Source: a virus
Reading direction: 5' to 3' (one strand)
Length of the DNA: 34,531 nt
IMG/VR virus record: IMGVR_UViG_3300027932_000003
Span: 1-34,531 of that record
The notes beneath the pieces are model-generated. The model was not told the DNA's origin. It saw nothing but the letters and a program-made list of their open reading frames with translations, and did not search any database. The translations under genes and the position numbers were made by a program. Shown here one piece after another: positions 1,841 to 29,948 of this stretch. Each line of letters opens with the position of its first letter. The first letter of the stretch is position 1.

Positions 1841-1860
1841 TTTTTCAAGTTTGAGATAAT
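1841..1860 (+). repeat. T-tract + palindromic element, copy 1 (tttttCAAGtTTGAGAtaat)
   Basis: Recurring motif 3' of plus-strand genes; see also 2403..2425, 3893..3912, 13608..13629, 17214..17237. Confidence 0.4.
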
Positions 1861-1987
1861 ATTACTAAATATAGAGAAATTGTGTGTTGTATAGTCTAAT
1901 GATAAAAATAACGTAAGATATAAAGGTAAAAGTATAAAGAAAACTTTAAATATGAGAATGAAGATATGTATATTGGTGAAAAGAAAA

Positions 1988-2302
1988 ATGAACACACAAA
2001 AAGATACACAAAAAGAAGTTGAGCAAAAGATAGGCGAAATTTTATATAGGGCAAGACAAGAAGGAGAAGCTTTTTTAGTTACTTTAACATCTGAGCAATT
2101 AAAGAAGTCTGGTTTTGAAGAGGATAATGATTTCTTTAATTTTAGCAATGTAGACATTTATATAATTTATGACGGCGAATACAAAATTAAATATATATTT
2201 GACAATGATCCTAGCAATTTTATGTATGAAAGTAAAATAGAAATTGGTGGGTTAAAGGAGTTCATAGAAGTTATTAAAAAATATCTAGAAGTTTCAGAGT
2301 AA
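1988..2302 (+). CDS. hypothetical protein (about 104 aa)
   Basis: ORF track starts at ATG 1952, which lies inside the TATA box (ctttaaatATGag). The first ATG at the expected 36-43 nt spacing is 1988, so I place the start there; same frame and stop. Confidence 0.5.
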   Translation: MNTQKDTQKEVEQKIGEILYRARQEGEAFLVTLTSEQLKKSGFEEDNDFFNFSNVDIYIIYDGEYKIKYIFDNDPSNFMYESKIEIGGLKEFIEVIKKYLEVSE

Positions 2303-2402
2303 TTTTTTTCTTTTTTTGTTTCAATTTTCCCAGTTACCGTTTTTTTCTCCAAATTTCTATTTCTCCATGACTATTTTCTAAAATTTTCAAGACTATGTAT
2401 AA

Positions 2403-2425
2403 TTTTTCTCAAGATTGAGATAAAA
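2403..2425 (+). repeat. T-tract + palindromic element, copy 2 (tttttcTCAAGATTGAGAtaaaa)
   Basis: TCTCAA-GA-TTGAGA is a perfect inverted repeat with 2-nt spacer, preceded by a T-tract. Confidence 0.4.
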
Positions 2426-2492
2426 ATTCATGACTAACATTTATTGAGAGAAACATAAATATGTCATAAATATAAAAGAAAATCGATATATT

Positions 2493-3017
2493 ATGAATAT
2501 AGTTTTGAGAGAATTGAATAAAGAAAAATTTAATATAAATATCACTGCATGGTTAGATATTGATAATGATATTCAAAGTTGTTATACAAATTTTAAAGAA
2601 ATTACGATAGTTACAATAATTCAAATGATTTCTGAAATTGTAGAAAAAGATGGCTGGGATTTACAATATTTTGAGAAAGATGAAGAAGAAAAATTATTTA
2701 ATGCATTTATGAAAAACTCTAAAATTACAGTACGGCTAAATAAAAAGATAGATGAATTGAATTATGATTTTAAAGAAACTATTGTTGAATTTGATTTTTC
2801 AGAAAGTGAGAAAAAGAAAATTGCAGAAATATATTTGAGTAATATACTTAATGAATATCGTTATTTAAATGACTGTATTTTGGAAAATTTAGCAGACAAA
2901 GATATTAATTCGATTTCAGAAGCTTTAAGTAGTGAAGTTTATCAATTATTAAGTTCTGATGAGATAAAAGCAAAATTTAAGGAAAAGATAGAGAAAATTA
3001 ATACTGAAAAAGTATAG
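2493..3017 (+). CDS. hypothetical acidic protein (174 aa)
   Basis: ATG ORF; promoter cataaatatGTCATAaatataaaag at about 2451..2478. Confidence 0.55.
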   Translation: MNIVLRELNKEKFNINITAWLDIDNDIQSCYTNFKEITIVTIIQMISEIVEKDGWDLQYFEKDEEEKLFNAFMKNSKITVRLNKKIDELNYDFKETIVEFDFSESEKKKIAEIYLSNILNEYRYLNDCILENLADKDINSISEALSSEVYQLLSSDEIKAKFKEKIEKINTEKV

Positions 3018-3032
3018 ATAAGATGTGAAAAT

Positions 3033-3194
3033 ATGGATTTAAATGCTCCATTAGATCCAATATGGCTTTTGGTTATTGTTGGAATTTTTTATGAATTATT
3101 ATTTATCTTTTTCTTATTGGAATTAAGACAGATAATGAAACGAATTGAAGAAGAAGAATTAGTCAGAATGTTAAAAAAGAAATATAAAAATTAA
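3033..3194 (+). CDS. small hypothetical membrane protein (53 aa)
   Basis: Hand-translated: MDLNAPLDPIWLLVIVGIFYELLFIFFLLELRQIMKRIEEEELVRMLKKKYKN; one hydrophobic helix followed by a charged tail; starts 16 nt after the stop of 2493..3017; below the ORF-track size cutoff. Confidence 0.3.
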   Translation: MDLNAPLDPIWLLVIVGIFYELLFIFFLLELRQIMKRIEEEELVRMLKKKYKN

Positions 3195-3293
3195 ATAAAT
3201 TTTCACTAAAAATATGGCGTAAGCTACAAAGATAAAAGTTTAGAGAAAACTTTAAATATAAGTTTAGACATATGTTATATTGAGGTAAGAAGA

Positions 3294-3461
3294 ATGAAAG
3301 AAGTAAAAGTTGGAAATTCGAGATATTATATAAGTTCAAGAGATGATGAGATAAGTGTAATACATGAGTTAGTTCAAAAAGGTTACTCCATAAGTCAAAT
3401 AGCTAGTTTGTTGAATATTTCAGAAAGAAAAATTAAAAAATACTTAGAAGATTGTTGGTAA
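3294..3461 (+). CDS. small helix-turn-helix DNA-binding protein (55 aa)
   Basis: Hand-translated: MKEVKVGNSRYYISSRDDEISVIHELVQKGYSISQIASLLNISERKIKKYLEDCW; GYSISQIASLLNISERKIKKYL is a typical HTH; TATA module at 3241..3260 and gaggt 8 nt upstream of the ATG; missed by the ORF track. Confidence 0.45.
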   Translation: MKEVKVGNSRYYISSRDDEISVIHELVQKGYSISQIASLLNISERKIKKYLEDCW

Positions 3462-3642
3462 GTTATTTCTTTTTTTGATTTTTAATTTTTTCTTTTCTTT
3501 TTATTTTTATGTTTTATTATTTTTAGTTTTAAAATATCAATACAAAATTTTCGATAAATTTTGGAATTGAAAGATATGAATGTAAAAGTTTGAAGAAAAT
3601 TTTATAAAGGGCAAATGACATAATGTAAAATTGGAGGTAAAT

Positions 3643-3843
3643 ATGAATTGTGTAACAATTGAACAAAAAGGCAAATATACGTACATAAAATGTAAAAAAT
3701 GTGGAAATGTGCTAATTACAAATGATCCAGAATTATCGTTAGCTCCAATAAAAAATAAACAATTAATATCAATATCTAGCTGTGAGCATTTTCAAGTTAT
3801 TGAAAATGAAGATACAGTCGAAATTATATCAAAACAAAGTTAA
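3643..3843 (+). CDS. hypothetical protein with Cys-rich putative metal-binding motifs (66 aa)
   Basis: ORF track starts at TTG 3631; ATG 3643 is preceded by ggaggt (Shine-Dalgarno-like) and lies about 40 nt from the TATA at about 3597; contains CKKCG and SSCEH. Confidence 0.45.
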   Translation: MNCVTIEQKGKYTYIKCKKCGNVLITNDPELSLAPIKNKQLISISSCEHFQVIENEDTVEIISKQS

Positions 3844-3892
3844 TTTTTTTCTTTTTTAGTTTTAACTTTCTATTTTCTATTTTTATGTTCCA

Positions 3893-3912
3893 TTTTTCTC
3901 AAGTTTGATATA
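3893..3912 (+). repeat. T-tract + palindromic element, copy 3 (tttttcTCAAGTTTGATAta)
   Basis: Same motif family, one mismatch in the right arm of the palindrome. Confidence 0.35.
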
Positions 3913-4014
3913 TTATTTCTAAACTGGAGGAATTAAAAAAGCGTAGGATAGAAACGTAAAACTGTAGAGAAAACTTTATATATAAGTTTTTGCATATTAG
4001 ATATTAGTGATAAC

Positions 4015-4251
4015 ATGAGTCAAAAAGTTAGGTTAGGCAGAAAAGAAAAAGCAGTTTTAGATTTTTTAAAAGAACATGCAGAAGGCGTTTGGAAGACCGA
4101 TTTAATTAATCATTTTAGCTGGGCTAGTCGTTATGATAATGTTATGAACAAAAGGTTACAACAAATGCAGAAAAAAGGTCTAATAATCATAAAAAGTGAG
4201 ATAAATCCGGAAAGCGGAAGAAGTAAGCAAAGAGTTTATTTAAAACAATAA
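4015..4251 (+). CDS. winged-helix DNA-binding protein (78 aa), paralog of 13704..13928
   Basis: Hand alignment with the 74-aa product of 13704..13928 shows shared R-GxxE, W, NKR, KKGL, NPxxGR and VYL positions; TATA module at 3968..3986. Confidence 0.6.
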   Translation: MSQKVRLGRKEKAVLDFLKEHAEGVWKTDLINHFSWASRYDNVMNKRLQQMQKKGLIIIKSEINPESGRSKQRVYLKQ

Positions 4252-4284
4252 TTTTTTTCTTTAATCTTTTTCTTTTTTTTAGTT

Positions 4285-4476
4285 TTATTTTAATTCTCTA
4301 ATTAAATCTTCTATCTCATAAATAATATCTTCTATTTTTTCAATTTTTTCTTTTTCAAATTCATGTTCTTCATAGTTCTCAATAAGTTTCATACTTTCTT
4401 CTAGTTTTTCTTTTGCATTTTGTAATTCTGTAATTGCAGATTCTAAAGCTGATATTATTTCATTGTAATCTATCAT
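4285..4476 (-). CDS. hypothetical acidic coiled-coil protein (63 aa)
   Basis: ATG ORF with aagaggtg upstream; last gene of a leftward gene string. Confidence 0.45.
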   Translation of the reverse strand: MIDYNEIISALESAITELQNAKEKLEESMKLIENYEEHEFEKEKIEKIEDIIYEIEDLIRELK

Positions 4477-4479
4477 TTT

Positions 4480-4746
4480 TTACACCTCTTTTATTCTTTT
4501 CCAAACCTTTCCAATTGTTACACTTATATCAATTGACATTACAGAAAACCAAATTTCAAAATTTAATAGTTTATTGTTAATTTCTAAATAGCCAGCAATT
4601 TTATTTTTATTTTTTGTATAAAATATTATTCTTGGTTTTTCGTTAAAAATAAAAGCTTTATTTAGTAGATTTAAAATATCTTCTTCTCTCATATTTTCAA
4701 TTTTGTTTTTTGTTTTTTCCATTTGCTCCAAAAATTTTTCACTCAT
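4480..4746 (-). CDS. hypothetical protein (88 aa)
   Basis: ATG ORF; own promoter tttttatatGTCATAtaatac on the minus strand at about 4765..4790. Confidence 0.5.
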   Translation of the reverse strand: MSEKFLEQMEKTKNKIENMREEDILNLLNKAFIFNEKPRIIFYTKNKNKIAGYLEINNKLLNFEIWFSVMSIDISVTIGKVWKRIKEV

Positions 4747-4798
4747 GTTTTCACAATTACTGTTGTATTATATGACATATAAAAAGATTTTTATTTTT

Positions 4799-5416
4799 TC
4801 AGAATAAAGAGCCAAAACATTTCGCTTTAAACTCACAGGCTTTACATAGATAATTATTCGCGCCAGGTATAGTTTTATAATCTTGTAATTTCATAAATTC
4901 TTTAAATTTCTTAATCCAGTCAATTGCTTTTTGCAGATATGTTCCAATTATAGTTTTATTTATTTGGAATTGTTTAACTTCTTTATTTATTCTATTTAAA
5001 TATATGATATAGACATTATCAATTTTATAGTTTTGTTGTTGTAATAAGTAATAGTAAATTGAGACTTGGTAAAGATGATATTCTTTGATATTAAAGTAAT
5101 TACTTGTGATAGTTTTTAGTTCTATAAGATCATTATTGCAAATTAAGTCAATTCTGCCTGATATTTTTAATCCTTCAATTTCGCCTTTTACTTCAACTTC
5201 AGATTTACAGCCTAGTTTTTCGACAAAATAATTTTCTATTCTCTCGTGATGTTGTTCTCCTAGGTCAAGGCTAATTTCATTTACTGCTTTCTCAAACTCA
5301 AATTTTCTACTAAAATAGCTTTTTCTAAAGCAAATTCCAATTTCGCTAGGAAATATTGTATTCTCTGGATATTTCATTTTGAAGCTTTGTTTTACAAATT
5401 CTTCATAATTTGTCAT
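4799..5416 (-). CDS. Cas4-like / RecB-family nuclease (205 aa)
   Basis: GRIDLI (motif II), IELK (motif III), [11 protein letters not shown] (QxxxY) and C-terminal C-x2-C-x5-C ([10 protein letters not shown]) plus an N-terminal Cys; aggtgg upstream of the ATG; follows the ATPase gene, as in the conserved rudivirus SSB-helicase-nuclease operon. Confidence 0.7.
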
Positions 5417-5418
5417 TT

Positions 5419-6726
5419 TTAACCACCTAAATTACTAAATCTCATTAAGTTTATTATTCTATTACAAATTTCTTCATTTTGTACTTTTCCAATTTGTAAA
5501 TCTATGTCTAATGCCTGTAATAGAATTTGAATATCGATACTTTGCTCTTGTCTTCTGGATTCTAAATTTTCGCAATTTACATAGTTATGAATACTATTTA
5601 TCTTCTGTTGAATTAATTCAATTAATGCTTTTAAAATTGAAGGATAAAGAACTCTTGCATTTATAATTTTATCGTAAGTTTTCTTAATTGCTAATTGAAT
5701 AATATGAATTCTATCTAATATTGCAGAAGTGAAAATTTCATAATTTTGTAGATAGTCTTCTAAATCTGGAGTTACTAATTTATTAATTGTATATGCATAT
5801 GGATTTCCAGCGTAAATAATTGGAATACATTTTTGTATAGTTGCTGATTTTGATTCTGTTCCAGCTCCTCTTGTCCAAATACAATTTTCAATTCCAGTTG
5901 ATAGAGTTGAATTTATAGTATTTAGTTCTTTTGTTGAAAAACCATCTTTCCAATTTTGAATTTCATCAAATATCAAACCGTTTGATAGAAATACAGCTCC
6001 ATACATATTGTTTCGAGCATCATATACCAAATTGGCATAAGTTGGAGCTTCCGTGTAATATCTAAAATTGAAAACTTCTTGTAAAATCATGAAAGTTGTA
6101 GTTTTTCCAGTTCCTCTATTAGAAATTTCAATATAATTTATTTGTCTTTTGGTAATTGGAGATTTGAAAAGTGGGAATAGTCTTGGAAGAAAGAGAAATA
6201 TATCATTTATTTCCATTTTAGTCGGGTCATATCCAAAACTTTGCAATAAAAGTGCATAAGTTGAATATTCTGAATTTGCTAATTCAAATAATTCTTTTGC
6301 AATTTCATAATTGTTGGGTGGCTCAATTGAATAAATATCATAAATACGCCAACCTTCTATACCTTTTCTAATTTTGACAAACATGTAACTTGTAATTAAA
6401 TTATAGAAATTTTCAGGATTATCAGCTATAAAATGTGGATCGAAATTTGCAGTAAAACCATTTTGAAATTTTGCTATAACTTCATCATCTTTTACTTTAA
6501 ACTGTATAATTTTAGAGATAAATTTCACTTCATCATTAAAAAGCAAATAAGATTGAAAATATTGTTGATCAATTCCGCGTTTGTAAGCTTTTAAAATTTC
6601 AATTTTCTTCCTTTCTTCAATTTGTTTTCCAGAGAGAATTATATTTAAAACTCTTTCTGTATCTCTTGGATTATAAAAAAAAGAATGAGATTTTATTTTT
6701 TCAAGAAGTTGATTTGAACTACTCAT
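5419..6726 (-). CDS. P-loop ATPase, putative helicase (435 aa)
   Basis: Walker A NRGTGKTT; size and position between the SSB-like and nuclease genes. Confidence 0.7.
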
Positions 6727-6751
6727 AAAAAAAATGATAACTTATGACGTT

Positions 6752-7165
6752 TTAAAATTCGTCTTCAACATTCTTTTTCTCTTTCTTTTTCTGTGTTTTT
6801 TCCTCCTTTTGGCTTGATTTTTGTTTTTCTTCTTCTTCTTCTGTGTCTATTTCTTCTTCTTGAACAGCATTATTATTCCTTGGCGTAAATTTTACATATT
6901 CGTTTAATAAGTCAGCATATTTATTTAAGAATTCTGAAATTAATCTTAAATCTTCAGCATCATTTGCGGTTATTCCAAGTTGTTTTCTAAAATTATTAGC
7001 AGAATGGATAGTCATTGAGTATCTAACTTTTCCGTCTTGTGGTATTGCATTTAACTGTACAACTATTCTTTTTAGACCTTTGATTTTTAAAATTCTACTG
7101 GCTATTTTATTATTTTCTTTAGCTTGTTTACCTAACTCATCTATTATTTCCTTCAAACTTGCCAT
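6752..7165 (-). CDS. putative ssDNA-binding protein with acidic C-terminal tail (137 aa)
   Basis: Acidic tail EEEIDTEEEEE; first gene of the leftward operon; promoter aaatatGTCATAttataag on the minus strand at about 7184..7208. Function inferred from operon context, not from a motif. Confidence 0.5.
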   Translation of the reverse strand: MASLKEIIDELGKQAKENNKIASRILKIKGLKRIVVQLNAIPQDGKVRYSMTIHSANNFRKQLGITANDAEDLRLISEFLNKYADLLNEYVKFTPRNNNAVQEEEIDTEEEEEKQKSSQKEEKTQKKKEKKNVEDEF

Positions 7166-7265
7166 CTTTTTCGCCTTATTAATAACTTATAATATGACAT
7201 ATTTATATATTTATAAAAGTACAAGCCATGATATTTAGAAGTTTAAAAAAAGATGAAAAAAATAT

Positions 7266-7538
7266 TTAAATTAACTTAAAGAATATAGATCTTATTAATT
7301 TAGATACTTTCATATTATATTTATTTGCTAATTCTTCAAGTTTTTGATAATATAATTCATCAATTGTGAAAAAAACACGCTCATCATAAATTTCACTGAT
7401 TTCAATTTCTTTAAATTCTTTTTGAGAATTTAGAATTTTATCTATTTCTTGTTTTATTGTCTCTCTTTTCTCATAAAAAAGATTTTTATACTTTGATGGT
7501 ATACGTAATTCGATATACTTATTTCTTTGCTTTTTCAT
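7266..7538 (-). CDS. hypothetical protein, possible ribbon-helix-helix fold (90 aa)
   Basis: C-terminal half RVFFTIDELYYQKLEELANKYNMKVSKLIRSIF fits a strand-helix-turn-helix (RHH) pattern; divergent from Rep across a shared 70-bp promoter region. Confidence 0.4.
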   Translation of the reverse strand: MKKQRNKYIELRIPSKYKNLFYEKRETIKQEIDKILNSQKEFKEIEISEIYDERVFFTIDELYYQKLEELANKYNMKVSKLIRSIFFKLI

Positions 7539-7581
7539 AATTTTAGATATTTTCAGGCATTATATAAACATGACATATACA

Positions 7582-7593
7582 TTTAAATGTCAG
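7582..7593 (+). promoter_or_regulatory. Rep promoter: TTTAAATGTCAG (TATA followed directly by GTC)
   Basis: TATA box abutting GTC about 20 nt upstream of the Rep start codon. Confidence 0.5.
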
Positions 7594-7609
7594 GTTTTCA
7601 ATTGCATAT

Positions 7610-7954
7610 GTGAACGGTAAAAAAGTTTTTAGCTATCATTTTCTTTATGTTTACACGTATTTTATTACTATTGCTACAAATTATCACTATAATGATACGA
7701 CAAAAATCTATAAAAAATTCAGACAATATATTTATAATCATGATAAAAATTCTCATATTTTTTCAGTAAAAGAATATACAACAAGATTACATGGTCTACA
7801 TTATCATGTTTTAGTTTTCACGAATAAAAGGCTTGACTATTCCAGAGTTCATAAGCAAATGCCAAAACATTCAGATATAAATATTCAATTAGTTCCAAAA
7901 ACAAAAAATGATATAAAAAAAGTTTTAACTTATATGTTAAAAAATCAAAAATAA
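7610..7954 (+). CDS. HUH-superfamily rolling-circle replication initiator Rep (114 aa)
   Basis: LHGLHYHVLVF (HUH motif: H-hydrophobic-H followed by hydrophobics) and VLTYMLK (YxxK, Tyr at residue 108 by my count). The frame has no ATG before residue 84, so the start is GTG at 7610, right at the expected leaderless position. Confidence 0.75.
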   Translation: MNGKKVFSYHFLYVYTYFITIATNYHYNDTTKIYKKFRQYIYNHDKNSHIFSVKEYTTRLHGLHYHVLVFTNKRLDYSRVHKQMPKHSDINIQLVPKTKNDIKKVLTYMLKNQK

Positions 7955-7955
7955 A

Positions 7956-8243
7956 TTACTTAGATTGAGGTTGTTGATTTTGTTCAGCTTTTTTCTGTGC
8001 TAATGCATTTACATCTCTTAATGTATCCATATTCAAGAGTGAATTAATTCCAAGGGTTGTAGTATCTTTAATTGATTCAACTGCTGAAATTGTAGATTTT
8101 GTCATCTGATCTACTGCAATTTGGAATGATTGATTTGCTTGCTTTTGATTGTAGAGATATACTACTTCTCCAACAACATAGCTAGCTATTAGAACTCCCA
8201 TCAGTACTAAAAATCCTTCTAAAGCTGTTTGGCTTAGTGTCAT
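7956..8243 (-). CDS. small membrane protein, N-terminal TM helix plus helical domain (95 aa); PVAP-like candidate
   Basis: One hydrophobic segment (ALEGFLVLMGVLIASYVVGEVVYLY) followed by about 65 polar, helix-prone residues; architecture resembles the roughly 98-aa rudivirus pyramid egress protein. Assignment is tentative. Confidence 0.5.
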   Translation of the reverse strand: MTLSQTALEGFLVLMGVLIASYVVGEVVYLYNQKQANQSFQIAVDQMTKSTISAVESIKDTTTLGINSLLNMDTLRDVNALAQKKAEQNQQPQSK

Positions 8244-8341
8244 TTCAATTTTATTATATGCAAATTACTTAGTAATAAAGTTTATGCAAAAAATCGAAAT
8301 ATATAAATATGTCATAATGTATGTTTATAAAATGAGGAAAA

Positions 8342-8503
8342 ATGATGGAGAAAGTTAAAAAGGAAAGAACAGTTTTCGGTATAAATATAGATAAAGAATT
8401 AAAAAGAAAATTAAAAGTATATTGTGCAAATAATAATATCACGCTAACAGAAGCAATTGAAGAAGCTTTAGAAGAATATTTACAGAAAAGGGGAACTAAA
8501 TGA
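8342..8503 (+). CDS. ribbon-helix-helix (CopG/Arc-like) DNA-binding protein (53 aa)
   Basis: Hand-translated: [53 protein letters not shown]; promoter atataaataTGTCATAat at 8301..8318; missed by the ORF track. Confidence 0.55.
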
Positions 8504-8646
8504 GAGTAATAACGTTTAAAGTTGAAGAAGATCTTTTGCAAAAACTTGATAAATATGCTATGAATCACAAGCTAAACAGATCTGAAGTAATTAGGCAAGC
8601 ATTAATGGAATTCTTGAGACCAAATACTACAACATATGATAGTTAA
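8500..8646 (+). CDS. ribbon-helix-helix DNA-binding protein (48 aa)
   Basis: Hand-translated: [48 protein letters not shown]; textbook RHH pattern; ATG overlaps the stop of the upstream RHH gene (ATGA). Confidence 0.55.
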
Positions 8647-8701
8647 AAATAAATTAATATATCTTTTTTTATTTTTCATTTTTTTACAAATATATTTCTA
8701 G

Positions 8702-8944: not shown

Positions 8945-8956
8945 TTTTTCTCATTT

Positions 8957-9232: not shown

Positions 9233-9287
9233 ACTTTGTCATTCTTATTTTTCGTTATCTGACAAATATATAAGTTTCTATTTCAAA

Positions 9288-9434: not shown

Positions 9435-9466
9435 TTAAAAAACTTTACTTTATCCTTAATTCTGAA

Positions 9467-10002: not shown

Positions 10003-10407
10003 ATGGCAAAAGGAAGAACACCAAGGTCCTATAGCCAAAGGTATGCAAAATGGTCAGCTAAATTTGCATCATTTTCAAATCCTACCGTAGCATCTACAAT
10101 TTTAAGTAATGTTTCGCCAGTTGCACAGCAAAATTTCCAAACTAATGTACCAAAGTTTACTAGTGTAAATGAACAAGTTTCTAGCGTATTGTCAGAATAT
10201 GGAATTACTGGCCCTAACAGGGCGATTTACCAAGGTTTCGGTCTTAAGGTAGCTAGAGCTTTAAATAGGTTGGGAGGAGGGCCAGCACTTGTTAACATGA
10301 TAAATGGACTAAAAGCATATTATATTTCAGCATTTAATGCTAATCCAACTGTTCTAGATGCAGTGACAAATATAATCACCGGTTCGCCAACTGGATATGT
10401 AAGCTAA
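10003..10407 (+). CDS. major capsid (coat) protein, rudivirus type (134 aa)
   Basis: Length and N-terminus (MAKGRTPRSYSQRYAKW...) match my recollection of the 134-aa SIRV coat protein; isolated monocistronic gene with a 235-bp upstream region and a long T-rich tail (10408..10518). Confidence 0.85.
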   Translation: MAKGRTPRSYSQRYAKWSAKFASFSNPTVASTILSNVSPVAQQNFQTNVPKFTSVNEQVSSVLSEYGITGPNRAIYQGFGLKVARALNRLGGGPALVNMINGLKAYYISAFNANPTVLDAVTNIITGSPTGYVS

Positions 10408-10518
10408 AAAATTATAGAATATCTTTTAAGCTATTTTATTTTTTTAATTTTTCTTTTTCAGAACTTTAGTTCAAATTTAAAATTTAAAAAAATTTACTTT
10501 TAACTTTTTAACTTGAAA

Positions 10519-10707
10519 TTAATCATTATCATCAATTTTTGTTTCTATATACTCATAATTTGTTTTACTTATTCTTTTACAATCACTAATTTTTACATTA
10601 GGATGATGTTTTTTCAAATGTGTAATCATAGCTTTTCTAGTTCTCGTTAAATGTTGACAAATTGGACATTCAAATAAAAAGATACCCATAGTGTTTTTTA
10701 GTGTCAT
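10519..10707 (-). CDS. C2H2 zinc-finger protein (62 aa)
   Basis: CPICQHLTRTRKAMITHLKKHH = C-x2-C-x12-H-x4-H. Confidence 0.6.
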   Translation of the reverse strand: MTLKNTMGIFLFECPICQHLTRTRKAMITHLKKHHPNVKISDCKRISKTNYEYIETKIDDND

Positions 10708-10725
10708 GACGTTTAAAAGCTTAAT

Positions 10726-11733
10726 ATGAAAACCGTAATTTTGACTATGAATTATTCATCTATAAGAAATGTTTCAGAAGATATTGCACAAGTTTTACGA
10801 AAAAATGGTGAAATTGTTACAATTTCAACAAATCCATATTTAATTCCACAATCTGATAAATTAATAATTTTTATGCCATTTCATCCTCCATCTCTAAATC
10901 CATATTTGTATGCATTTAGAGAATTTAAAGGTAAGAAGTATTTTTATACAACTTGTGATGGTTTACCTAATACAAATATTGTAAATCAATATCTATTAGA
11001 AAATATAATATTTATACCAAATTCAAAGTTTACAGCTCAGAATTTACAAGAAGTTGGCTTAAATGTTGAATTGCCAGTTTTCCATGGTATAAATTTTGAA
11101 ATTGTAGAAAAAGCTGAACAATTAGCTATTCAATTGAAACAAAAATTAGATGCTGATTTTCCAAATGTTGTAAAGTTTGGAATTGTTTCAGGTTTAACTA
11201 AAAGAAAAAATATGGATCTTATGATAAGAGTTTTTCAAGAAACAAATACTAAAATTCCAGAATTAGCCAAGAAAATCCATTTCTTTGTAATTTCTCATAA
11301 AGCATTTAAAGATTTTGAAGTTCCTGAAAATGTGCATTTTGTTAGTGAATTTGGACTAAATCCTAGAGAATATATATTTGCATTTTATTCAACTATGGAT
11401 TTTGTAATTGTTCCTTCTGGAACTGAGGGCTTTGGACTTCCAGTTTTAGAAAGCATGGCTATGGGAACTCCAGTAATTCACCAATTAATGCCTCCATTTG
11501 ATGAATTTACATCATGGCAATGGAATTTACTAATTAAATCATCAGAAATTGAAGAATATTACGATAAAACGCATGGGCAAAAATGGAGAATTCATAAATT
11601 TGATATTCATGACATGATAAATGCAATATTAATAGCTTCAGAACTTCAAGATAGAGATGAGAGAAGTCAAAATTTAAGAGAATTAGCAAAAAGATACGAT
11701 ATTAATAATTTATATGTTAGATTTTTAGAGTGA
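10726..11733 (+). CDS. GT-B fold glycosyltransferase (GT4-like) (335 aa)
   Basis: SGTEGFGLPVLESMAMGTPVI contains the E-x7-E motif of retaining GT4 enzymes; immediately downstream of the coat gene region. Confidence 0.8.
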   Translation: MKTVILTMNYSSIRNVSEDIAQVLRKNGEIVTISTNPYLIPQSDKLIIFMPFHPPSLNPYLYAFREFKGKKYFYTTCDGLPNTNIVNQYLLENIIFIPNSKFTAQNLQEVGLNVELPVFHGINFEIVEKAEQLAIQLKQKLDADFPNVVKFGIVSGLTKRKNMDLMIRVFQETNTKIPELAKKIHFFVISHKAFKDFEVPENVHFVSEFGLNPREYIFAFYSTMDFVIVPSGTEGFGLPVLESMAMGTPVIHQLMPPFDEFTSWQWNLLIKSSEIEEYYDKTHGQKWRIHKFDIHDMINAILIASELQDRDERSQNLRELAKRYDINNLYVRFLE

Positions 11734-11796
11734 CTTCAAGAGCTGATTAATCGAAAAATTTATGTATGTCATAATATATATAATTGTTGTGAGAGT

Positions 11797-11922
11797 ATGA
11801 GAGAGATAATAATCGAATGTAAAGATTTTACAAGATTTCATGTAAAAGAAAAGAAAGGTATACAAATTAAAAATATAATACAAATGTGTCAAAGTTACAA
11901 TCTAGAAGTTAAGGTGTATTAA
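11797..11922 (+). CDS. small hypothetical protein (41 aa)
   Basis: Hand-translated: MREIIIECKDFTRFHVKEKKGIQIKNIIQMCQSYNLEVKVY; preceded by tatgtatGTCATAatatatat; ends 3 nt before the next ATG. Weak. Confidence 0.25.
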   Translation: MREIIIECKDFTRFHVKEKKGIQIKNIIQMCQSYNLEVKVY

Positions 11923-11925
11923 AAA

Positions 11926-12225
11926 ATGCCAAAATTTTATTATTGCTATTTATGTAAAACTACACTTGTTGGGAAAAAACAATTTAAAAAGCATGCACAA
12001 ATACACTTTAAAAACAATAGATGTCCATATTGCAATATGAAAACTAAGAATTTGAATATTCATTTAGCATATTATCATCTAGGATATAGAAGAAAAGCAA
12101 TTTTATTAAGAGATTTAGCAATTTTGTGCAAAGAAGCAAATAGTACAAATATTTTGAAAGATGAAAATCTAAAACTTGATAATTACATCAAATTCAATAT
12201 ACAAAGAATGATGAAAAAGTTATAA
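11926..12225 (+). CDS. C2H2 zinc-finger protein (99 aa)
   Basis: CYLCKTTLVGKKQFKKHAQIH = C-x2-C-x12-H-x3-H, plus a second finger-like CPYCNMKTKNLNIHLAYYH. Confidence 0.6.
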   Translation: MPKFYYCYLCKTTLVGKKQFKKHAQIHFKNNRCPYCNMKTKNLNIHLAYYHLGYRRKAILLRDLAILCKEANSTNILKDENLKLDNYIKFNIQRMMKKL

Positions 12226-12249
12226 TTCTTTTTTTAGTTTGTATTTTTT

Positions 12250-12447
12250 TCACTTCTTATTTTCTGAGTTTTTGTTTAGCAAAACTGATATATCTTTGCT
12301 AATTTCTTCAGATATATTTTTAATTATTTCTAAAGCTTCCAATATTTCATCTTCTTTAAGATCTTCATTTTCATTAATTTCGGTAATTAGACCAAGTTGT
12401 AATTCAAGTAAAATCTCAAATTTTATTAAATCTATCTTTTTTATCAT
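12250..12447 (-). CDS. hypothetical acidic helical protein (65 aa)
   Basis: ATG ORF; promoter atatttGTCATAttttaaattt on the minus strand; preferred over the overlapping low-complexity plus-strand ORF 12239..12463. Confidence 0.45.
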   Translation of the reverse strand: MIKKIDLIKFEILLELQLGLITEINENEDLKEDEILEALEIIKNISEEISKDISVLLNKNSENKK

Positions 12448-12484
12448 TTTCTCACGTAGATAGAAATTTAAAATATGACAAATA

Positions 12485-12712
12485 TCAAGTTTTGCCTAAT
12501 CTCATTTTTATTTCTTCTATTTCTTTTTTAAGTTCATTTTGAGAAATCTTTAATTCCTCAATCTGAATTTTCAGATTTTGTAATTCTGAATTTACTATCT
12601 CTTTAACAGCATCTTTCAGAGCTTGTTTTATCTTAAGATAAAGTTGAACAATTGCGAATAATGTAGTTACAAATGTAGAAATTATAGTTAGAATTAAAGT
12701 TATTTCACTCAT
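12485..12712 (-). CDS. membrane-anchored coiled-coil protein (75 aa)
   Basis: N-terminal hydrophobic helix (ITLILTIISTFVTTLFAIVQLYL) then heptad-like ELQNLKIQIEELKISQNELKKEIEEIKMRL; overlaps the upstream gene by 8 nt. Confidence 0.5.
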   Translation of the reverse strand: MSEITLILTIISTFVTTLFAIVQLYLKIKQALKDAVKEIVNSELQNLKIQIEELKISQNELKKEIEEIKMRLGKT

Positions 12713-13088
12713 CTTTTATTCCCTCTAATTGATCTTCTAAATTATCTAAATTTAAATTTTCATCTTCTTTAAATTTTTGGTAAACAGAATCTACTTGTTT
12801 CGCGTAAGGCTGAGGATAAACTACGCGAAAATCTGCGATATCAATTCTACCAGTTTTAGGATCTTTAGCTATTAAAAATTGGAAATAGAAAGTAAATCCG
12901 GGGATATATAAATCTACAATTATGGGCAATTCTGAATTTTTTAAAACAATAATTGAATGTGGTAAATATTTTGATAATCCATAAATTTGACCTTGTAATT
13001 CTAATTCTCTAATTTTATCTATCGCGATTCTAACAGGGCCGAAAATATTCGCGAATTCATCTTTAACTTGCATAATTATATATTTCAT
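12705..13088 (-). CDS. hypothetical protein (127 aa)
   Basis: ATG ORF, first gene of a two-gene leftward unit. Confidence 0.55.
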   Translation of the reverse strand: MKYIIMQVKDEFANIFGPVRIAIDKIRELELQGQIYGLSKYLPHSIIVLKNSELPIIVDLYIPGFTFYFQFLIAKDPKTGRIDIADFRVVYPQPYAKQVDSVYQKFKEDENLNLDNLEDQLEGIKDE

Positions 13089-13175
13089 AAAACAAGAATA
13101 AATAAACTCAAAGCGAATTTGCTATATACATTATATTATGTATATTAGTTTGTTGTTTAATACGTAAAGCATGAG

Positions 13176-13198
13176 CGAAAGATTTATATATTTCGAAA
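13176..13198 (+). promoter_or_regulatory. Inverted-repeat-flanked TATA promoter (CGAAAgATTTATATAtTTCGaaa) for the zinc-finger gene 13223..13576
   Basis: CGAAA / TTTCG inverted repeat brackets the TATA box; identical 23-mer at 13656..13678. Confidence 0.5.
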
Positions 13199-13222
13199 AC
13201 GAATATTATCTTGGTGAAAAGA

Positions 13223-13576
13223 ATGAGAAGTCAAAAAACACAAAACAAAAGCCAAAACAAGTTACTTTTTTGTAAATTATGTTCTTTCGTAGCTACAAGT
13301 TATGAAGAATTAGATCATCATATAAAAATGAGTCATGAAGAATCAGATGATATTTCTGAAGAATTTCAAGTAATTTTTCTAAAGAAAAAAGACTATGAAG
13401 AGTATATGCGTAAAGAATATTTAAGAATTTGTAAAGGAGGAGGATGTATTATTAGACCACAAATTGATATTGAGAATGACAAAGATGAAATAAAACATTT
13501 ATACAAAGAATATTGTTCAACTTGTGAACTTAAGAAATATCTTCTAGCCGAATTAAAAGAAAACGGAAAAATGTGA
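13223..13576 (+). CDS. C2H2 zinc-finger protein (117 aa)
   Basis: ORF track starts at TTG 13211; first ATG is 13223, 37 nt from the TATA. CKLCSFVATSYEELDHHIKMSH = C-x2-C-x12-H-x4-H; additional C-x2-C (CSTC) near the C-terminus. Confidence 0.55.
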   Translation: MRSQKTQNKSQNKLLFCKLCSFVATSYEELDHHIKMSHEESDDISEEFQVIFLKKKDYEEYMRKEYLRICKGGGCIIRPQIDIENDKDEIKHLYKEYCSTCELKKYLLAELKENGKM

Positions 13577-13607
13577 ATTTATTAAGTCTTTATTTTTTTA
13601 TGCCCTA

Positions 13608-13629
13608 TTTTTTTCAAATTTGTATTAAT
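13608..13629 (+). repeat. T-tract + palindromic element, copy 4 (tttttttCAAATTTGtattaat)
   Basis: CAAATTTG palindrome after a T7 run, 3' of 13223..13576. Confidence 0.35.
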
Positions 13630-13655
13630 ATTTCTAATTTTTAACAAACAGAAAA

Positions 13656-13678
13656 CGAAAGATTTATATATTTCGAAA
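13656..13678 (+). promoter_or_regulatory. Inverted-repeat-flanked TATA promoter, second copy, for the winged-helix gene 13704..13928
   Basis: Same 23-mer as 13176..13198; 38 nt from ATG 13704. Confidence 0.5.
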
Positions 13679-13703
13679 GCATATATTATAATGATGAAAG
13701 AGA

Positions 13704-13928
13704 ATGAGGATAGGTAAAGAAGAAGAAAAAATTTTAGAATATCTTCAAAAAAATGGAGATTCAGAGTGGTTAGATAAATTGAAAAGTACTTTTTCTCATA
13801 CTGTTGGATATAAAATAATTGTAAATAAAAGAATAAAGAATCTAGAGAAAAAAGGTCTAGTAAAAATTGTTTGGGAAAAGAATCCACAGACTGGAAGAAA
13901 TAAAAAGAAAGTGTATTTAGTAACTTAA
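13704..13928 (+). CDS. winged-helix DNA-binding protein (74 aa), paralog of 4015..4251
   Basis: See 4015..4251; conserved NKR, KKGL, NPxTGR and VYL positions. Confidence 0.6.
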   Translation: MRIGKEEEKILEYLQKNGDSEWLDKLKSTFSHTVGYKIIVNKRIKNLEKKGLVKIVWEKNPQTGRNKKKVYLVT

Positions 13929-13954
13929 AATGTAAAGAGATATAGGTGAAAAAA

Positions 13955-14170
13955 ATGAGTGTAGAAAAAGTTGAGCAGAAAATAATTGAAATAGCACATG
14001 AATTTGCTCAAAAATATGGAAAAGAAATCTTGGAATTAAGTGAAGATGAACTAATCTCATATCTAACATCATTTTTTAATTATGAAGAATGGTTGATTTT
14101 TAAACATAATGAAATAGAAATGTTAAGATTATTTTTGAAAACAGTAAAAGAAGATTTATCTAAATCTTAA
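13955..14170 (+). CDS. hypothetical protein (71 aa)
   Basis: ORF track starts at GTG 13946; ATG 13955 is preceded by aggtga; likely co-transcribed with 13704..13928. Confidence 0.45.
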   Translation: MSVEKVEQKIIEIAHEFAQKYGKEILELSEDELISYLTSFFNYEEWLIFKHNEIEMLRLFLKTVKEDLSKS

Positions 14171-14355
14171 GTTAATATTTTTAAAATTTTTTTCTTATCA
14201 ATCTTTTTATCAGTTTTGCAAGGTATATAAAATCCTTCATGTAAATCATACGGTTCACCATACCATAATTTTTTATTCAAATTACATGGCTCAGTATTCC
14301 AACCTTTCTTCTTTTTGATTATCATATTCTCAATCTTATTATCTACTCGCCACAT
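14167..14355 (-). CDS. hypothetical basic protein (62 aa)
   Basis: ATG ORF overlapping the 3' end of the large upstream gene by 17 nt; uncertain. Confidence 0.3.
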   Translation of the reverse strand: MWRVDNKIENMIIKKKKGWNTEPCNLNKKLWYGEPYDLHEGFYIPCKTDKKIDKKKILKILT

Positions 14356-15739
14356 TTTTAAAGTTTTTATAGTAGAAAATTGGCTTATATTGTTTAGCTT
14401 TTGTCGATTTTTGAGCTAATTTTATCGAATTTTCAACTTTTGCTTGACCTTGTAATTTCTCTCCAAGTTGTTGAGCAAATTGTAAATCAGCATTTGAAAT
14501 TCCATAAAATGACCATTTTGTCTTCCAATAATTCAAGAAATCAGAATATGATAATGTTCTTTTTCCAGAATTGTAACTATAATTTTGTTGATATGGATAT
14601 CTAGCAATTTCTAGAATTGCTGAAGCTACCATTTTAGCATACCAAATGTTTGAATACTTCTTATTCACAATTTGTTGAACATGTAAGAATTGTTGATATG
14701 TAACTGCATAATTTTCAATTTCTGAGCTATAAGTAATATTTATCCCACCGGGACTTGGATCATAAAGATGTAATTTAAACAAACTCCCAAAAATTGAAAT
14801 TACAGTTTTATCAGCAGTTAAAATTGTTATTAAATCTAATTGTGTAACATTATTAGGATTAAATTCAGGAATTAACATAGCAAAGTCAAGAGGAGTATAA
14901 TCTAATATCATTCCGAAAACATCAGCAAAATTTTGTAAAATCATATTATTCTCAAGTTGAACTTTATAAGTTGGAGAATTTTCAATTTCTGGAGCTAAAA
15001 TACACCTGTCTAACCATCCAACATCAAGGGCAAATCCACTATTAATTATCTCGTTTAAATTGGGAACAAATGAAACTACAAATTTAGCTAAATCTGGAAG
15101 TTGATTATAGTTTAAATTTAATGCATTTAGCAAATCACCAACTCCAGTATTTTGAATATTATTAAGTGAATAATTATCAACATTTGGAATTTGAGTATTT
15201 CCAATTCCTAAAGTTTGTAAGTTAATACTAGTATTTGTAGTTGTTAAGCTATTAAAATATTGTTCTATTTTTTCACATGCTTGATTTCTATTTATAATTG
15301 TATTAGCTGGTTGAAAGACAGAGAGATCAAAATAAGTTTCATCAAAAACGGCTGGTTGATATAAAATTGAGCAAAGATCTACATAATTATCATAAAATTG
15401 TATAAAGTTATTAACAAATTCAAGACCAGAAGTTTGACCATAAATTCCACTTTGACCTAATTGTAGAAAACTAAATGAATTTGTATTTGGATTAAATATT
15501 GAAATTGCTAAATTGTTTAATGATGAAAGTAAAGCTGAAATAATTGTAGCATATGCAATTCCATAATTAGTATTTATACCTGGAGGAATTTGAACATTTT
15601 CAAGTGGAGTTGGAAGAATTGATTCAACTCCAGCGTTAAACATTACAGAAAAAGCTGGAAATGTTTTTCTATTTAGTACTTTTTGATAAAGATGATATTT
15701 CATTTGTGCAATTGATCTTTGTCCTACTTTCCTACCCAT
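14339..15739 (-). CDS. putative minor virion structural protein, N/Q/S/T-rich (about 466 aa)
   Basis: ORF track start 15763 is TTG; first ATG is 15739 with ttttattttGAC about 22 nt upstream; composition and size resemble rudivirus minor structural proteins (from memory). Confidence 0.55.
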   Translation of the reverse strand: MGRKVGQRSIAQMKYHLYQKVLNRKTFPAFSVMFNAGVESILPTPLENVQIPPGINTNYGIAYATIISALLSSLNNLAISIFNPNTNSFSFLQLGQSGIYGQTSGLEFVNNFIQFYDNYVDLCSILYQPAVFDETYFDLSVFQPANTIINRNQACEKIEQYFNSLTTTNTSINLQTLGIGNTQIPNVDNYSLNNIQNTGVGDLLNALNLNYNQLPDLAKFVVSFVPNLNEIINSGFALDVGWLDRCILAPEIENSPTYKVQLENNMILQNFADVFGMILDYTPLDFAMLIPEFNPNNVTQLDLITILTADKTVISIFGSLFKLHLYDPSPGGINITYSSEIENYAVTYQQFLHVQQIVNKKYSNIWYAKMVASAILEIARYPYQQNYSYNSGKRTLSYSDFLNYWKTKWSFYGISNADLQFAQQLGEKLQGQAKVENSIKLAQKSTKAKQYKPIFYYKNFKNVASR

Positions 15740-15873
15740 AATTATTATATTTGTAAAAGTCAAAATAAAAACTTAATTCTAATATACAATATAATGTATA
15801 TCAGTTTTACTCTTTGATCTCATCATATTCAATTCATAAAATATATATTTGTCATAATTTGAGTTACGAATGT

Positions 15874-16332
15874 ATGCAATTACAATTTAGAATAGAAGAA
15901 GCAAAAGATAAAGAATTAATAAAATTTGTAAGAATGTTGATAGATTATTATCATTCTCAAGGAATGCCTTTGGGAGGCGGTGCTGGAAAAAATAGCAGAT
16001 ATTTTATGTATATTGCTAACGACAGTGAGCAAGATTTTATTGTAGCAGTAGCATGGCTCCATGACAATACACCATTTAGATATATAGCTCAAGAATACAA
16101 AATTCCAGATAATAGAAGTTATTTTATTAGAAGAGTTACAAAAACAGTTCCTGGAGATTATGACATTAATTTTCTAATTGATTTAGCTAAGAAATTGAAA
16201 AATGATGGATTTGAAGTACTTTGGACTTTAGGATTTCCAGATCATTCCAACGCTTTATACAAGAAAGCAGGATTTCAAGAAGTTGGGAAAACAAATAGAA
16301 CTGGACATCCAATTTTCATTAAAAAATTATAA
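15874..16332 (+). CDS. hypothetical protein, possible GNAT-like acetyltransferase fold (152 aa)
   Basis: ORF track start 15814 is TTG; ATG 15874 lies about 25 nt after atatatatttGTCATAat. C-terminal NALYKKAGFQEVG resembles GNAT motif B; motif A is not clear. Confidence 0.45.
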   Translation: MQLQFRIEEAKDKELIKFVRMLIDYYHSQGMPLGGGAGKNSRYFMYIANDSEQDFIVAVAWLHDNTPFRYIAQEYKIPDNRSYFIRRVTKTVPGDYDINFLIDLAKKLKNDGFEVLWTLGFPDHSNALYKKAGFQEVGKTNRTGHPIFIKKL

Positions 16333-16608
16333 CTTATGTTTTTTAATCTTATTTGCTATATATACTGATTCTATAATTGAAAGAAGTGTTTCAAGTTGAA
16401 CATCATTATCGATAAGTACTCCAAAAAGATAACCAAAGAAAATAATTAAAGAATCCATACTTATTTTTTCATCTTTGTAGCTTTCTAAAAGATCATAAAA
16501 AGCATATTCTAGATAACTTACTTGTTTTTCTATAATTTTAAGTGAGTTTTCATCTGGATGAAAAGTTTCTTTAAAAACTTCTATTATTTTCTGTAAACCG
16601 GGATCCAT
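16327..16608 (-). CDS. hypothetical protein (93 aa)
   Basis: ATG ORF, convergent with 15874..16332. Confidence 0.5.
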   Translation of the reverse strand: MDPGLQKIIEVFKETFHPDENSLKIIEKQVSYLEYAFYDLLESYKDEKISMDSLIIFFGYLFGVLIDNDVQLETLLSIIESVYIANKIKKHKL

Positions 16609-16680
16609 ATATCATCAATATAAAAATTTTTATATGACAAATTTAAACATATATATGTCATAATTTTTAAGTTTAATTTG

Positions 16681-17064
16681 ATGAATTTTAGACAATCTGG
16701 AAAATATTATGAATATAAGACACTTAATTATCTTGAAAAACATGGCTATAAAGCTATAAGAATTCCAGTTTCTGGAACTGGAAAACAGCCAATTCCAGAT
16801 ATTATAGCAATTAAGGATAATACAATTTTTCCAATTGAAGTTAAATCAACTTCACAAAATTATGTTGTAATTGATAATTTTCAAATTGATAAATTGTTTA
16901 AGTTCTGTGAGATATTCAATTTTTGTAATTGTAAACCGTTAATACTAGTTCATTATAAAAAATATAAAAATGTCATAATATATAATTTGAGTCAAGATGT
17001 CAGAACAAAAGAAAAAATCAAATTTGCCTTCAGAGCTAACAGCAAAACTGTATTTAGCACTTGA
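16681..17064 (+). CDS. Holliday junction resolvase, Hjc-type (127 aa)
   Basis: ORF track start 16678 is TTG; ATG at 16681. RIPVSGTGKQPIPDIIAIKDNTIFPIEVKS shows the SG ... PD-IIA ... EVK nuclease core of archaeal Hjc; promoter atatatatGTCATAattt. Confidence 0.75.
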   Translation: MNFRQSGKYYEYKTLNYLEKHGYKAIRIPVSGTGKQPIPDIIAIKDNTIFPIEVKSTSQNYVVIDNFQIDKLFKFCEIFNFCNCKPLILVHYKKYKNVIIYNLSQDVRTKEKIKFAFRANSKTVFST

Positions 17065-17206
17065 CGATTTAACTATGGCATTAGCTACTTGTGATAGTGA
17101 AGAAATTAGAAAGAGTGAAGTTTTTCAAAAAGCTCTAGAAGTTGTGAAAATTGTAAAAGAAATGAGAAATGCTAAAATAAAATCTGATGAAGAAGAAAAA
17201 GCCTAA
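16997..17206 (+). CDS. hypothetical helical protein (69 aa), overlapping the 3' end of the resolvase gene
   Basis: ATG ORF in another frame overlapping 16681..17064 by 68 nt; plausible composition; uncertain. Confidence 0.3.
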   Translation: MSEQKKKSNLPSELTAKLYLALDDLTMALATCDSEEIRKSEVFQKALEVVKIVKEMRNAKIKSDEEEKA

Positions 17207-17213
17207 ATTTCAA

Positions 17214-17237
17214 TTTTTTTCAAGTTAAAGAGATAAC
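17214..17237 (+). repeat. T-tract + palindromic element, copy 5 (tttttttCAAGTTAAAGAGAtaac)
   Basis: Same motif family, directly after the stop at 17206. Confidence 0.35.
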
Positions 17238-29934: not shown

Positions 29935-29948
29935 AAGATAAAAAAATA

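Follow-up and report, generated by a model that had tools for sequence, protein, structure and literature searches.

A conserved 42-nt element with an oligo-T core, probably a transcription terminator, at gene 3' ends in viruses of the Sulfolobales

The window analysed here, the whole 34,531-bp stretch of DNA deposited as IMG/VR virus record IMGVR_UViG_3300027932_000003 (25% G+C), carries a recurrent 42-nt element built around a run of T. We propose, with a probability of about 0.65, that this element is the signal that marks the 3' boundary of transcription units, namely an extended version of the oligo-T terminator known from archaea, which is shared by the rudiviruses, the lipothrixviruses and the large tailed spindle viruses of the Sulfolobales. 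The first 12 kb of the window align over 91% of their length, at 89% identity, with Sulfolobus islandicus rod-shaped virus 8 (SIRV8), and the major capsid protein of the window shares 99% identity with the counterparts in SIRV8, SIRV9 and SIRV10. Because of this similarity and of the perfect 1,556-bp inverted terminal repeats at 1-1556 and 32976-34531, the window is taken as a whole linear genome; it is the complete or nearly complete genome of a Yellowstone-type rudivirus of the genus Usarudivirus.

The family consensus, TTTATSnnTAATTTTTYTCAnnTTTnnnATAnTAnTTCTA, was obtained from aligned intergenic regions and then from scans of related genomes. Membership within the window was decided with a 42-nt weight matrix trained on the other genomes only, the window being left out, and sites of at least 20 bits were accepted as members. 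Six window copies reached this score (Table 1), as compared to a mean of 0 matches and a top score of 19.1 in 200 first-order Markov shuffles, which served as the null model. Likewise, the 21-nt consensus TTTTTYTCAAGWTTGAGATAA with at most three mismatches matched the window three times (1839, 2403 and 3893), against 0.11 matches expected. The motif search proposed in the initial annotation, run here and in related genomes, thus showed the element to be commoner than chance. That annotation had described a T run followed by a short inverted repeat at five plus-strand sites, each after a stop codon. All five are present, including the perfect TCTCAAGATTGAGA at 2407-2420, and all five do follow a stop codon, at 75, 101, 50, 32 and 8 nt. 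Four of them fall into one 42-nt family, while the fifth, at 17214, is excluded by its score. The T7 run at this fifth site is kept at the same position in other usarudiviruses and may be a plain oligo-T terminator. As for the members of the family, orthologous copies of copy 4 occur in SIRV5/6/7/8/9/V60 and those of copy 6 in SIRV9 and SIRV10. The decayed copy at 3506-3547 has orthologous, equally decayed copies in SIRV4/5/6/11.

Position statistics were taken over 75 non-redundant copies. The TTTTT at positions 12-16 is invariant (75/75) and is followed by a pyrimidine and then by T in 74 of the 75 copies, with C19 and A20 each kept in 73. The other conserved blocks are TTTAT plus C or G (positions 1-6), TAA (9-11), TT (23-24) and ATAnTAnTTCTA (29-40), and the same consensus was derived independently in five clades. 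In 57 ortholog-like pairs, which are not independent of each other, the mismatch rate was 0.054 at the conserved positions, 0.146 in the flanks and 0.278 at the variable positions. Constraint of this kind, specific to positions and distributed over three blocks, is what a recognised signal would show and speaks against homology alone.

The inverted repeat, on the other hand, is not what the family conserves. The palindrome pairs positions 16-21 with 24-29, and at least five of these six pairs are complementary in just 14 of the 75 copies. Across the same copies, positions 17 and 28 show no covariation, and positions 21-28, the right arm of the palindrome, are the fastest-changing stretch between orthologs in the 57 pairs. 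The window copies happen to be unusually good palindromes within the family. The description of the motif as a T tract plus a palindrome therefore has to be abandoned, since the palindrome is its most variable segment and is well formed in a minority of copies. The bare palindrome TCAAGNTTGA was ruled out as the motif, as it is not enriched in the window (17 matches against 18.7 expected), and the lack of conservation of the repeat (14/75) also eliminated an operator that would bind a dimeric regulator through it. RNA folds of five window copies were no stabler than those of shuffled sequences (minimum free energy -1.7 to -7.5 kcal/mol at 37 C, z -0.30 to +1.03), and Rfam covariance models gave 0 matches at the gathering score over the whole window; these two results ruled out an RNA hairpin or other structured RNA. 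A mini-reading frame of seven codons (ATG xxx AAT TTT TCT CAA xTT TGA), readable in many copies, was rejected because about half of the copies carry ATC instead of ATG (position 6: C in 36, G in 34). The 5' block (positions 2-11) often forms a short palindrome of its own, TTAT-SS-ATAA, such as TTATCGATAA at SIRV2 4922 or the variant with ATGCAT at SIRV7 2065; the two bases at its centre are complementary to each other in 29 of the 75 copies, where ~18 would be expected, which is weak evidence as the copies are related.

The position of the element relative to genes is regular. In 20 full genomes, 118 of the 120 copies lie within 150 nt downstream of the stop codon of a co-oriented, mechanically called open reading frame (ORF), at a median distance of 54 nt, and this number drops to 40 of 120 if the element is flipped. 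In Acidianus filamentous virus 9 (AFV9), Sulfolobus islandicus filamentous virus (SIFV) as well as in Acidianus two-tailed virus (ATV), all 13 copies are found 6-69 nt past annotated co-oriented stop codons. The element stands 3' of the 561-aa helicase gene of AFV9, of its SIFV homolog and of the matching 563-codon ORF in a betalipothrixvirus-like contig (L054). Plus copies occupy the left arm and minus copies the right arm, yet the orientation follows the gene, as exemplified by SIRV8 35783 (plus). Between convergent genes, two copies can face each other (AFV9 7102+/7216- and L054 5197+/5287-). Furthermore, SIRV2 4922, between the convergent gp08 and gp09, the window copy at 29942 and Acidianus rod-shaped virus 2 (ARV2) 2388 have no promoter or gene downstream. 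The copy at 29942 overlaps the 3' end of a convergent plus-strand ORF (29032-29934) and has no co-oriented gene beyond it. The element is independent of any downstream promoter.

The left arm of SIRV2 gives a gene-by-gene view. The element lies 3' of gp01, 02, 03, 05, 07 and 08, the last of these although the next gene is convergent, and is missing where genes abut (gp04/05, gp10/11 and gp11/12) and ahead of the first gene. Between gp06 and gp07, a variant that is ~3 nt shorter is present. Base composition changes across the element as well. In the 75 non-redundant copies, the 70 nt upstream contain 53-61% T, ~6% G and several T runs, while the downstream sequence contains 43-47% A and T runs of at least five become very rare. 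The last T run of the gene tail is thus the one inside the element, where the T-rich tail gives way to an A-rich promoter zone. Tandem elements exactly 77 nt apart occur 3' of AcrIIIB1-type genes (Table 1), and the first copy of such a pair starts 5 nt past the stop codon.

The 120 copies are distributed among rudiviruses, the lipothrixviruses AFV9 and SIFV, and ATV. In 17 rudivirus genomes, 108 copies scored at least 20 bits, as compared to 0 in their shuffled versions. The number per rudivirus genome varies from 1 to 14, with 14 copies in SIRV2, 11 each in SIRV3, ARV2 and SIRV9, 10 in SIRV8, 9 in SIRV1, 2 in ARV1 and 1 each in Stygiolobus rod-shaped virus (SRV) and Sulfolobales Beppu rod-shaped virus 1 (SBRV1). 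Outside Rudiviridae there are 5 in AFV9, 4 in SIFV, 1 in an AFV2 fragment, 4 in the first 50 kb of ATV and 2 in each contig that resembles Acidianus tailed spindle virus (ATSV). The spread beyond rudiviruses was established by an exact-pattern scan of IMG/VR with follow-up, using a stringent pattern that detects 40% of the known copies. Two IMG/VR contigs (L018 and L019) have element scores identical to those of the window and represent the same or a near-identical virus. No copies of at least 15 bits were found in Sulfolobus spindle-shaped virus 1 (SSV1) or Sulfolobus turreted icosahedral virus (STIV), and matches in PLSDB plasmids stayed at chance level. Among the 27 pattern matches in species-representative genomes, none was in a Sulfolobales chromosome, which spoke against a host-type signal at the 40% sensitivity of the pattern, so that weak or rare host copies are possible.

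Contigs of five bacterial assemblies, with a G+C content of 0.22-0.29, showed element scores identical to those of SIRV3: Planomonospora alba JCM 9373 (L081/L085; NZ_BAAAUT010000071, 31,951 bp), Streptomyces gamaensis (L068/L079/L083), Aquimarina litoralis JCM 15974 (L064/L071), Colwellia asteriadis JCM 15608 (L066) and Paenochrobactrum glaciei JCM 15115 (L076). These series look like contaminating rudivirus DNA. A literature search with partial coverage, which included TTTTTYT and TTTTTCTCA, retrieved no description of the extended element.

The T run of the element matches the T runs that stand ahead of mapped transcript ends in SSV1. The SSV1 record NC_001338 is annotated with five such sites, each a few nt past a run of T5-7: TTTTTTCTC, TTTTTTT (three times) and TTTTTCT. 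The mapped ends begin 3-7 nt past the end of the T run and reach up to ~20 nt from its start. Taken together, the invariant TTTTTYT, the 118 of 120 stop codons, the convergent pairs, the promoter-independent copies and the SSV1 T runs lend contextual support to one of the two functions suggested in the initial annotation, that of a terminator. The TTTTTYT sequence was reportedly described by Reiter, Palm and Zillig in 1988 as a terminator signal in Sulfolobus. Archaeal termination takes place at U-tracts without hairpins, often at several serial sites (PMC7289017).

In the mechanism that we envisage, the host RNA polymerase would leave the gene, cross the T-rich tail with its weaker T runs and then arrive at TTTTTYT, the invariant stretch that spans element positions 12-18, where the transcript would be released owing to the weakness of the rU:dA hybrid, with no need for an RNA hairpin. 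The conserved flanks, which comprise TTTAT(C/G) and TAA upstream, the CA that adjoins the T run on its 3' side and the block ATAnTAnTTCTA located 11 nt downstream, may raise the efficiency of termination. By analogy with SSV1, the RNA would end in the variable spacer at positions ~18-30, with the downstream block still in duplex just ahead of the polymerase. Our preferred guess is that the ATAnTAnTTCTA block serves as a binding site or as rigid DNA, which would halt the polymerase while its active site lies on the T run, in a pause-and-release layout like that of the eukaryotic RNA polymerase I terminator. The reading with the best support is a gene-end terminator module that has the T run as its working core.

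Several considerations weigh against this terminator interpretation. Termination at the element is deduced from its position and its T run. The T run alone should suffice for an archaeal terminator, and the conservation of 42 nt is unexplained by the known mechanism. The ORFs behind the orientation and spacing counts are mechanical calls and not curated genes. Almost all copies in the arrays of terminal genes also have the next start codon 59-118 nt downstream of them, and position therefore separates the hypotheses in the minority of informative cases only. The SIRV2 5452 copy is located between the divergent gp09 and gp10 and has no co-oriented gene upstream; it may be the relic of an inverted gp09 cassette, whose own element is decayed. 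Finally, the absence of the element from Sulfolobales chromosomes, as judged by the stringent pattern, is odd for a signal read by the host machinery alone. A more elaborate version of the terminator idea, which we regard as possible but doubtful, is a virus-specific, factor-dependent terminator and insulator, in which the U-tract would be the release site and ATAnTAnTTCTA the site of a host or viral protein that stalls the polymerase. The same element would also act as a common joint for the exchange of anti-defence cassettes between unrelated viruses.

Alternatively, the element might act on the next promoter from far upstream, as an operator or activating site through which Aca8, a ribbon-helix-helix (RHH) protein, a winged helix-turn-helix (wHTH) protein or Sta1 would control early anti-defence genes. 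We consider this unlikely. A co-oriented ORF does start within 150 nt downstream of 106 of the 120 copies, the element of SIRV1-3 runs directly into a conserved GGTTGAAAA block and an early promoter, and in 17 copy pairs the downstream gene and the 3' part of the element move together. The SIRV2 5452 copy, which precedes gp10, also suits an operator, as does the RHH protein SvtR, which acts ~80 nt upstream of a TATA box (PMC5569661). However, the spacing between the element and the TATA box is not fixed, and copies are found upstream of several promoter types or of none (the convergent pairs, SIRV2 4922 and window 29942), while the early promoters of SIRV2 gp01 and gp05 and those at window 1491 and 3217 have no element. 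The published early/anti-defence motif is a 20-nt core promoter composed of a B recognition element (BRE) and a TATA box, found no more than 100 bp from the start codon and reading GAAATAGAAAGKTTTATATA in SIRV2 (PMC11065993, Bhoobalan-Chitty et al. 2024). The element is located outside this motif and was rejected as a part of it, since the two do not overlap, TTTAWATA is missing and the TATA box follows 11-146 nt further downstream. As for the regulators, Aca8 is the putative repressor of the early/anti-defence sequence (PMC11065993). Its homologs occur in all SIRVs, SRV and SBRV1, of which SRV and SBRV1 have one element copy each, and none was detected at E<1e-3 in ARV2 (11 copies), AFV9 (5), SIFV (4) or ATV (4). 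An Aca8 operator was ruled out by this disagreement between the two phyletic patterns, and it is for the early promoters, rather than for the element, that the Aca8-like protein of the window is a candidate repressor. Similarly, the wHTH paralogs are missing from SIRV1-3, which hold 9-14 element copies each, and this eliminated a wHTH operator. The SvtR consensus ATnnTTCAAnAnnnnnAAAATG, as quoted in a review (PMC5569661), overlapped no element in SIRV1, SIRV2 or the window with up to two mismatches, which excluded an SvtR operator. The sites of SvtR and of the wHTH protein Sta1 on SIRV1 promoters do resemble the element in being AT-rich imperfect inverted repeats in rudivirus intergenic DNA, and the Sta1 consensus ATNT-N8-WNAT is too degenerate to tell element sites apart. 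The other suggestion of the initial annotation, an operator for the small DNA-binding proteins encoded here, is thus not supported, in view of the Aca8 and wHTH distributions, the SvtR mismatch, the variable TATA spacing and the element-free early promoters.

In another explanation, the element is a shared joint for homologous recombination, bounding cassettes of terminal genes that move between arms or co-infecting viruses, or else a small self-propagating repeat, with termination being incidental. We think this improbable. In 17 pairs of copies only the downstream flank is shared and in 3 the reverse holds, with similarity breaking inside the element; one cassette lies on opposite arms in SIRV8 (2382+) and SIRV10 (31442-), a copy stands on each side of the apparently inverted gp09 cassette of SIRV2, the variable positions change faster than the flanks, and the element is common to unrelated virus families. 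It is retained across families by homologous genes, namely ATV gp03 and ARV1 gp15 (36% amino-acid identity) and ATV gp29, ARV2 gp05 and ARV1 gp36 (53-58%). A joint, however, needs no fixed gene orientation, and all but two of the 120 copies point the same way as the gene upstream of them. Moreover, the element also follows core genes at orthologous positions (the AFV9/SIFV/L054 helicase and the zinc-finger gene 13211-13576), is constrained position by position in three blocks and has no terminal repeats or target-site duplications. In our reading, it travels with transcription units and bounds them, and it sits at the joints of exchanged terminal gene cassettes, with recombination as a consequence and not as the selected function. 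A protein-binding or DNA-shape signal outside transcription, for instance in genome packaging, nucleoprotein phasing or replication, appears highly improbable. The T clusters near positions 3, 15, 24 and 35 are ~10.7 nt apart and could bend DNA, and the majority of the carriers belong to the filamentous viruses in the order Ligamenvirales, but the carriers ATV and the ATSV-like viruses have a different virion type. Such a role also fits poorly with an orientation that tracks single genes rather than genome arms or replication direction, with the confinement of the copies to gene 3' ends and with a copy number that varies so widely (1-14 per genome). Least credible of all is an antisense promoter on the opposite strand, composed of GAGAAAAA and an AT-rich box, that would produce RNAs antisense to the upstream gene. 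The reverse complement does open with the purine-rich GAGAAAAA, which resembles the early-promoter BRE TAGAGAAAAC; this stretch, however, is the mere complement of the T run, and the box TTATSNATAAA has a central C/G and agrees with TTTAWATA at 2 of 8 positions. The sequence, having no TATA-like box, ruled out this promoter, and the literature examined gave no sign of such transcripts.

Table 1. Copies of the element and neighbouring features in the window; the last row refers to other genomes
Feature	Position	Strand	Remarks
Element copy 1	1828-1869	+	ATTATGTTAAATTTTTTTCAAGTTTGAGATAATATTACTAAA; 36.6 bits; 63 nt past the stop codon of ORF 1567-1764; closes the T-rich tail
Element copy 2	2392-2433	+	ACTATGTATAATTTTTCTCAAGATTGAGATAAAAATTCATGA; 35.6 bits; 89 nt past the stop codon of ORF 1988-2302; holds the palindrome 2407-2420
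Element copy 3	3882-3923	+	TTTATGTTCCATTTTTCTCAAGTTTGATATATTATTTCTAAA; 41.6 bits; 38 nt past the stop codon of ORF 3643-3843
Element copy 4	13597-13638	+	TTTATGCCCTATTTTTTTCAAATTTGTATTAATATTTCTAAT; 39.6 bits; 20 nt past the stop codon of C2H2 zinc-finger ORF 13211-13576 (Pfam); genome core
Element copy 5	32557-32598	-	32.3 bits; right arm; 53 nt past the stop codon of minus-strand ORF 32652-32978; absent from the initial annotation
Element copy 6, weaker	29901-29942	-	22.6 bits; 6 nt past the stop codon of minus-strand ORF 29949-30503; absent from the initial annotation
Decayed copy	3506-3547	+	14.3 bits; interrupted T run; 3' of the Aca8-like gene 3294-3461; absent from the initial annotation
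T7 run, not a member	17214-17237	+	-17.2 bits; 8 nt past the stop codon of ORF 16997-17206
T-rich, G-poor tail	1765-1827	+	contains several T runs; separates the stop codon from copy 1
Similar T-rich tails	2303-2391, 3844-3881	+	ahead of copies 2 and 3
Early/anti-defence-type promoter	1911-1975	+	BRE + TTTAAATA; repeat family D1; precedes the next gene; module separate from the element
Five paralogous promoters	1491-1555, 1911-1975, 3217-3281, 3567-3631, 3941-4005		GTAAAAGTTTAGAGAAAACTTTAAATATAAG; precede small genes of the left arm, among them the Aca8-like gene
Aca8-like gene	3294-3461	+	55-aa helix-turn-helix (HTH) protein; HTH_7, E=3.8e-6; phrog_7067; homolog of aca8 (SIRV2 gp01/gp54, PMC11065993)
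Tandem element pairs, 77 nt apart	SIRV2 30651-30769; SIRV1 27485-27603, 28445-28563; SIRV3 29028-29146		

The five left-arm promoters of the window (Table 1) correspond to the published early/anti-defence regulatory sequence. The distance of 85-115 nt to the next promoter, which had been given for four of the five initial sites, holds for copy 1 alone (~103 nt to TTTAAATA at 1944), as compared to ~50, 81 and 55 nt for copies 2, 3 and 4. The published motif (PMC11065993) and the element occur in one set of genomes and in the same terminal cassettes of single genes, are spread similarly over Rudiviridae, Lipothrixviridae and Bicaudaviridae, and are both conserved non-coding modules that flank fast-evolving genes. 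The element differs in its position upstream of the motif, in its tie to the 3' end of the preceding gene and in its occurrence without such promoters. The distances from the element to the TATA box, as seen in SIRV2 1510-1583 and other spacers, cluster at 11, 24, 37, 51, 61, 75 and 90 nt. These spacers are built of purine-rich, AGAGAGATAAAAAG-like units of ~12-14 nt, the copy number of which seems to vary between promoters.

Other features were observed in the neighbourhood of the window copies. The wHTH paralogs 4015-4251 and 13704-13928 are 36-37% identical and both belong to phrog_9113, and the second matches the winged-helix family HTH_24; an element copy precedes each of them, and their promoter types differ. 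A near-palindromic, promoter-like CGAAAGATTTATATATTTCGAAA is found at 13160-13185 and 13655-13680, ahead of the zinc-finger (13211-13576) and wHTH (13704-13928) genes, and may be an operator shared by the two. The region 17207-17620 is a 414-nt non-coding stretch upstream of a gene for a 1,058-aa tail-fibre-type protein and contains short inverted repeats, such as TTACGC...GCGTAA; the SIRV1 homolog of this gene has a promoter region that is the main target of SvtR. At the ends of the genome, the terminal repeat takes in the first gene (1290-1478), with a second copy at 33054-33242, and its nt 1-460 contain many short GGAAATTCCAA-type direct repeats.

A review counts transcription termination among the most poorly understood stages of gene expression in archaea (PMC7289017). 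The bare U-tract is the only accepted archaeal termination signal, and a constrained 42-nt motif at gene ends gives a concrete handle on this step. The element could be used as bait for a termination or roadblock factor and as a defined terminator part in Sulfolobus genetics. Since anti-CRISPR and other anti-defence genes are carried in single-gene cassettes whose 3' edge is marked by the element, it could also complement the published promoter-based search for anti-defence genes and help to trace the movement of cassettes between viruses. If the element were merely a strong T-run terminator copied along with genes, the finding would be an ordinary one.

Among known terminators, the bacterial Rho-independent type likewise has an inverted repeat and a T run close together 3' of a gene. 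In the element, however, the order is reversed, with the T run before the repeat, and the stems are AT-rich. A terminator of this type was rejected, since the element has no stable G+C-rich hairpin followed by a U-tract and its repeat is unconserved, without compensatory changes. The terminators of eukaryotic RNA polymerase I consist of a T-rich release element followed by a roadblock site for Reb1 or TTF-I. They offer a functional analogy only: the element likewise combines a T-rich release site with a conserved block about one helical turn downstream, but the roadblock protein is known for RNA polymerase I, and the likeness is one of layout, implying no homology. The archaeal oligo-T terminators of SSV1 share with the element a coding-strand run of T5-7 soon after the stop codon, the lack of a hairpin and, often, serial T runs. 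They differ in that the SSV1 sites score below 0 bits with the matrix, whereas the element adds three further conserved blocks around the T run.

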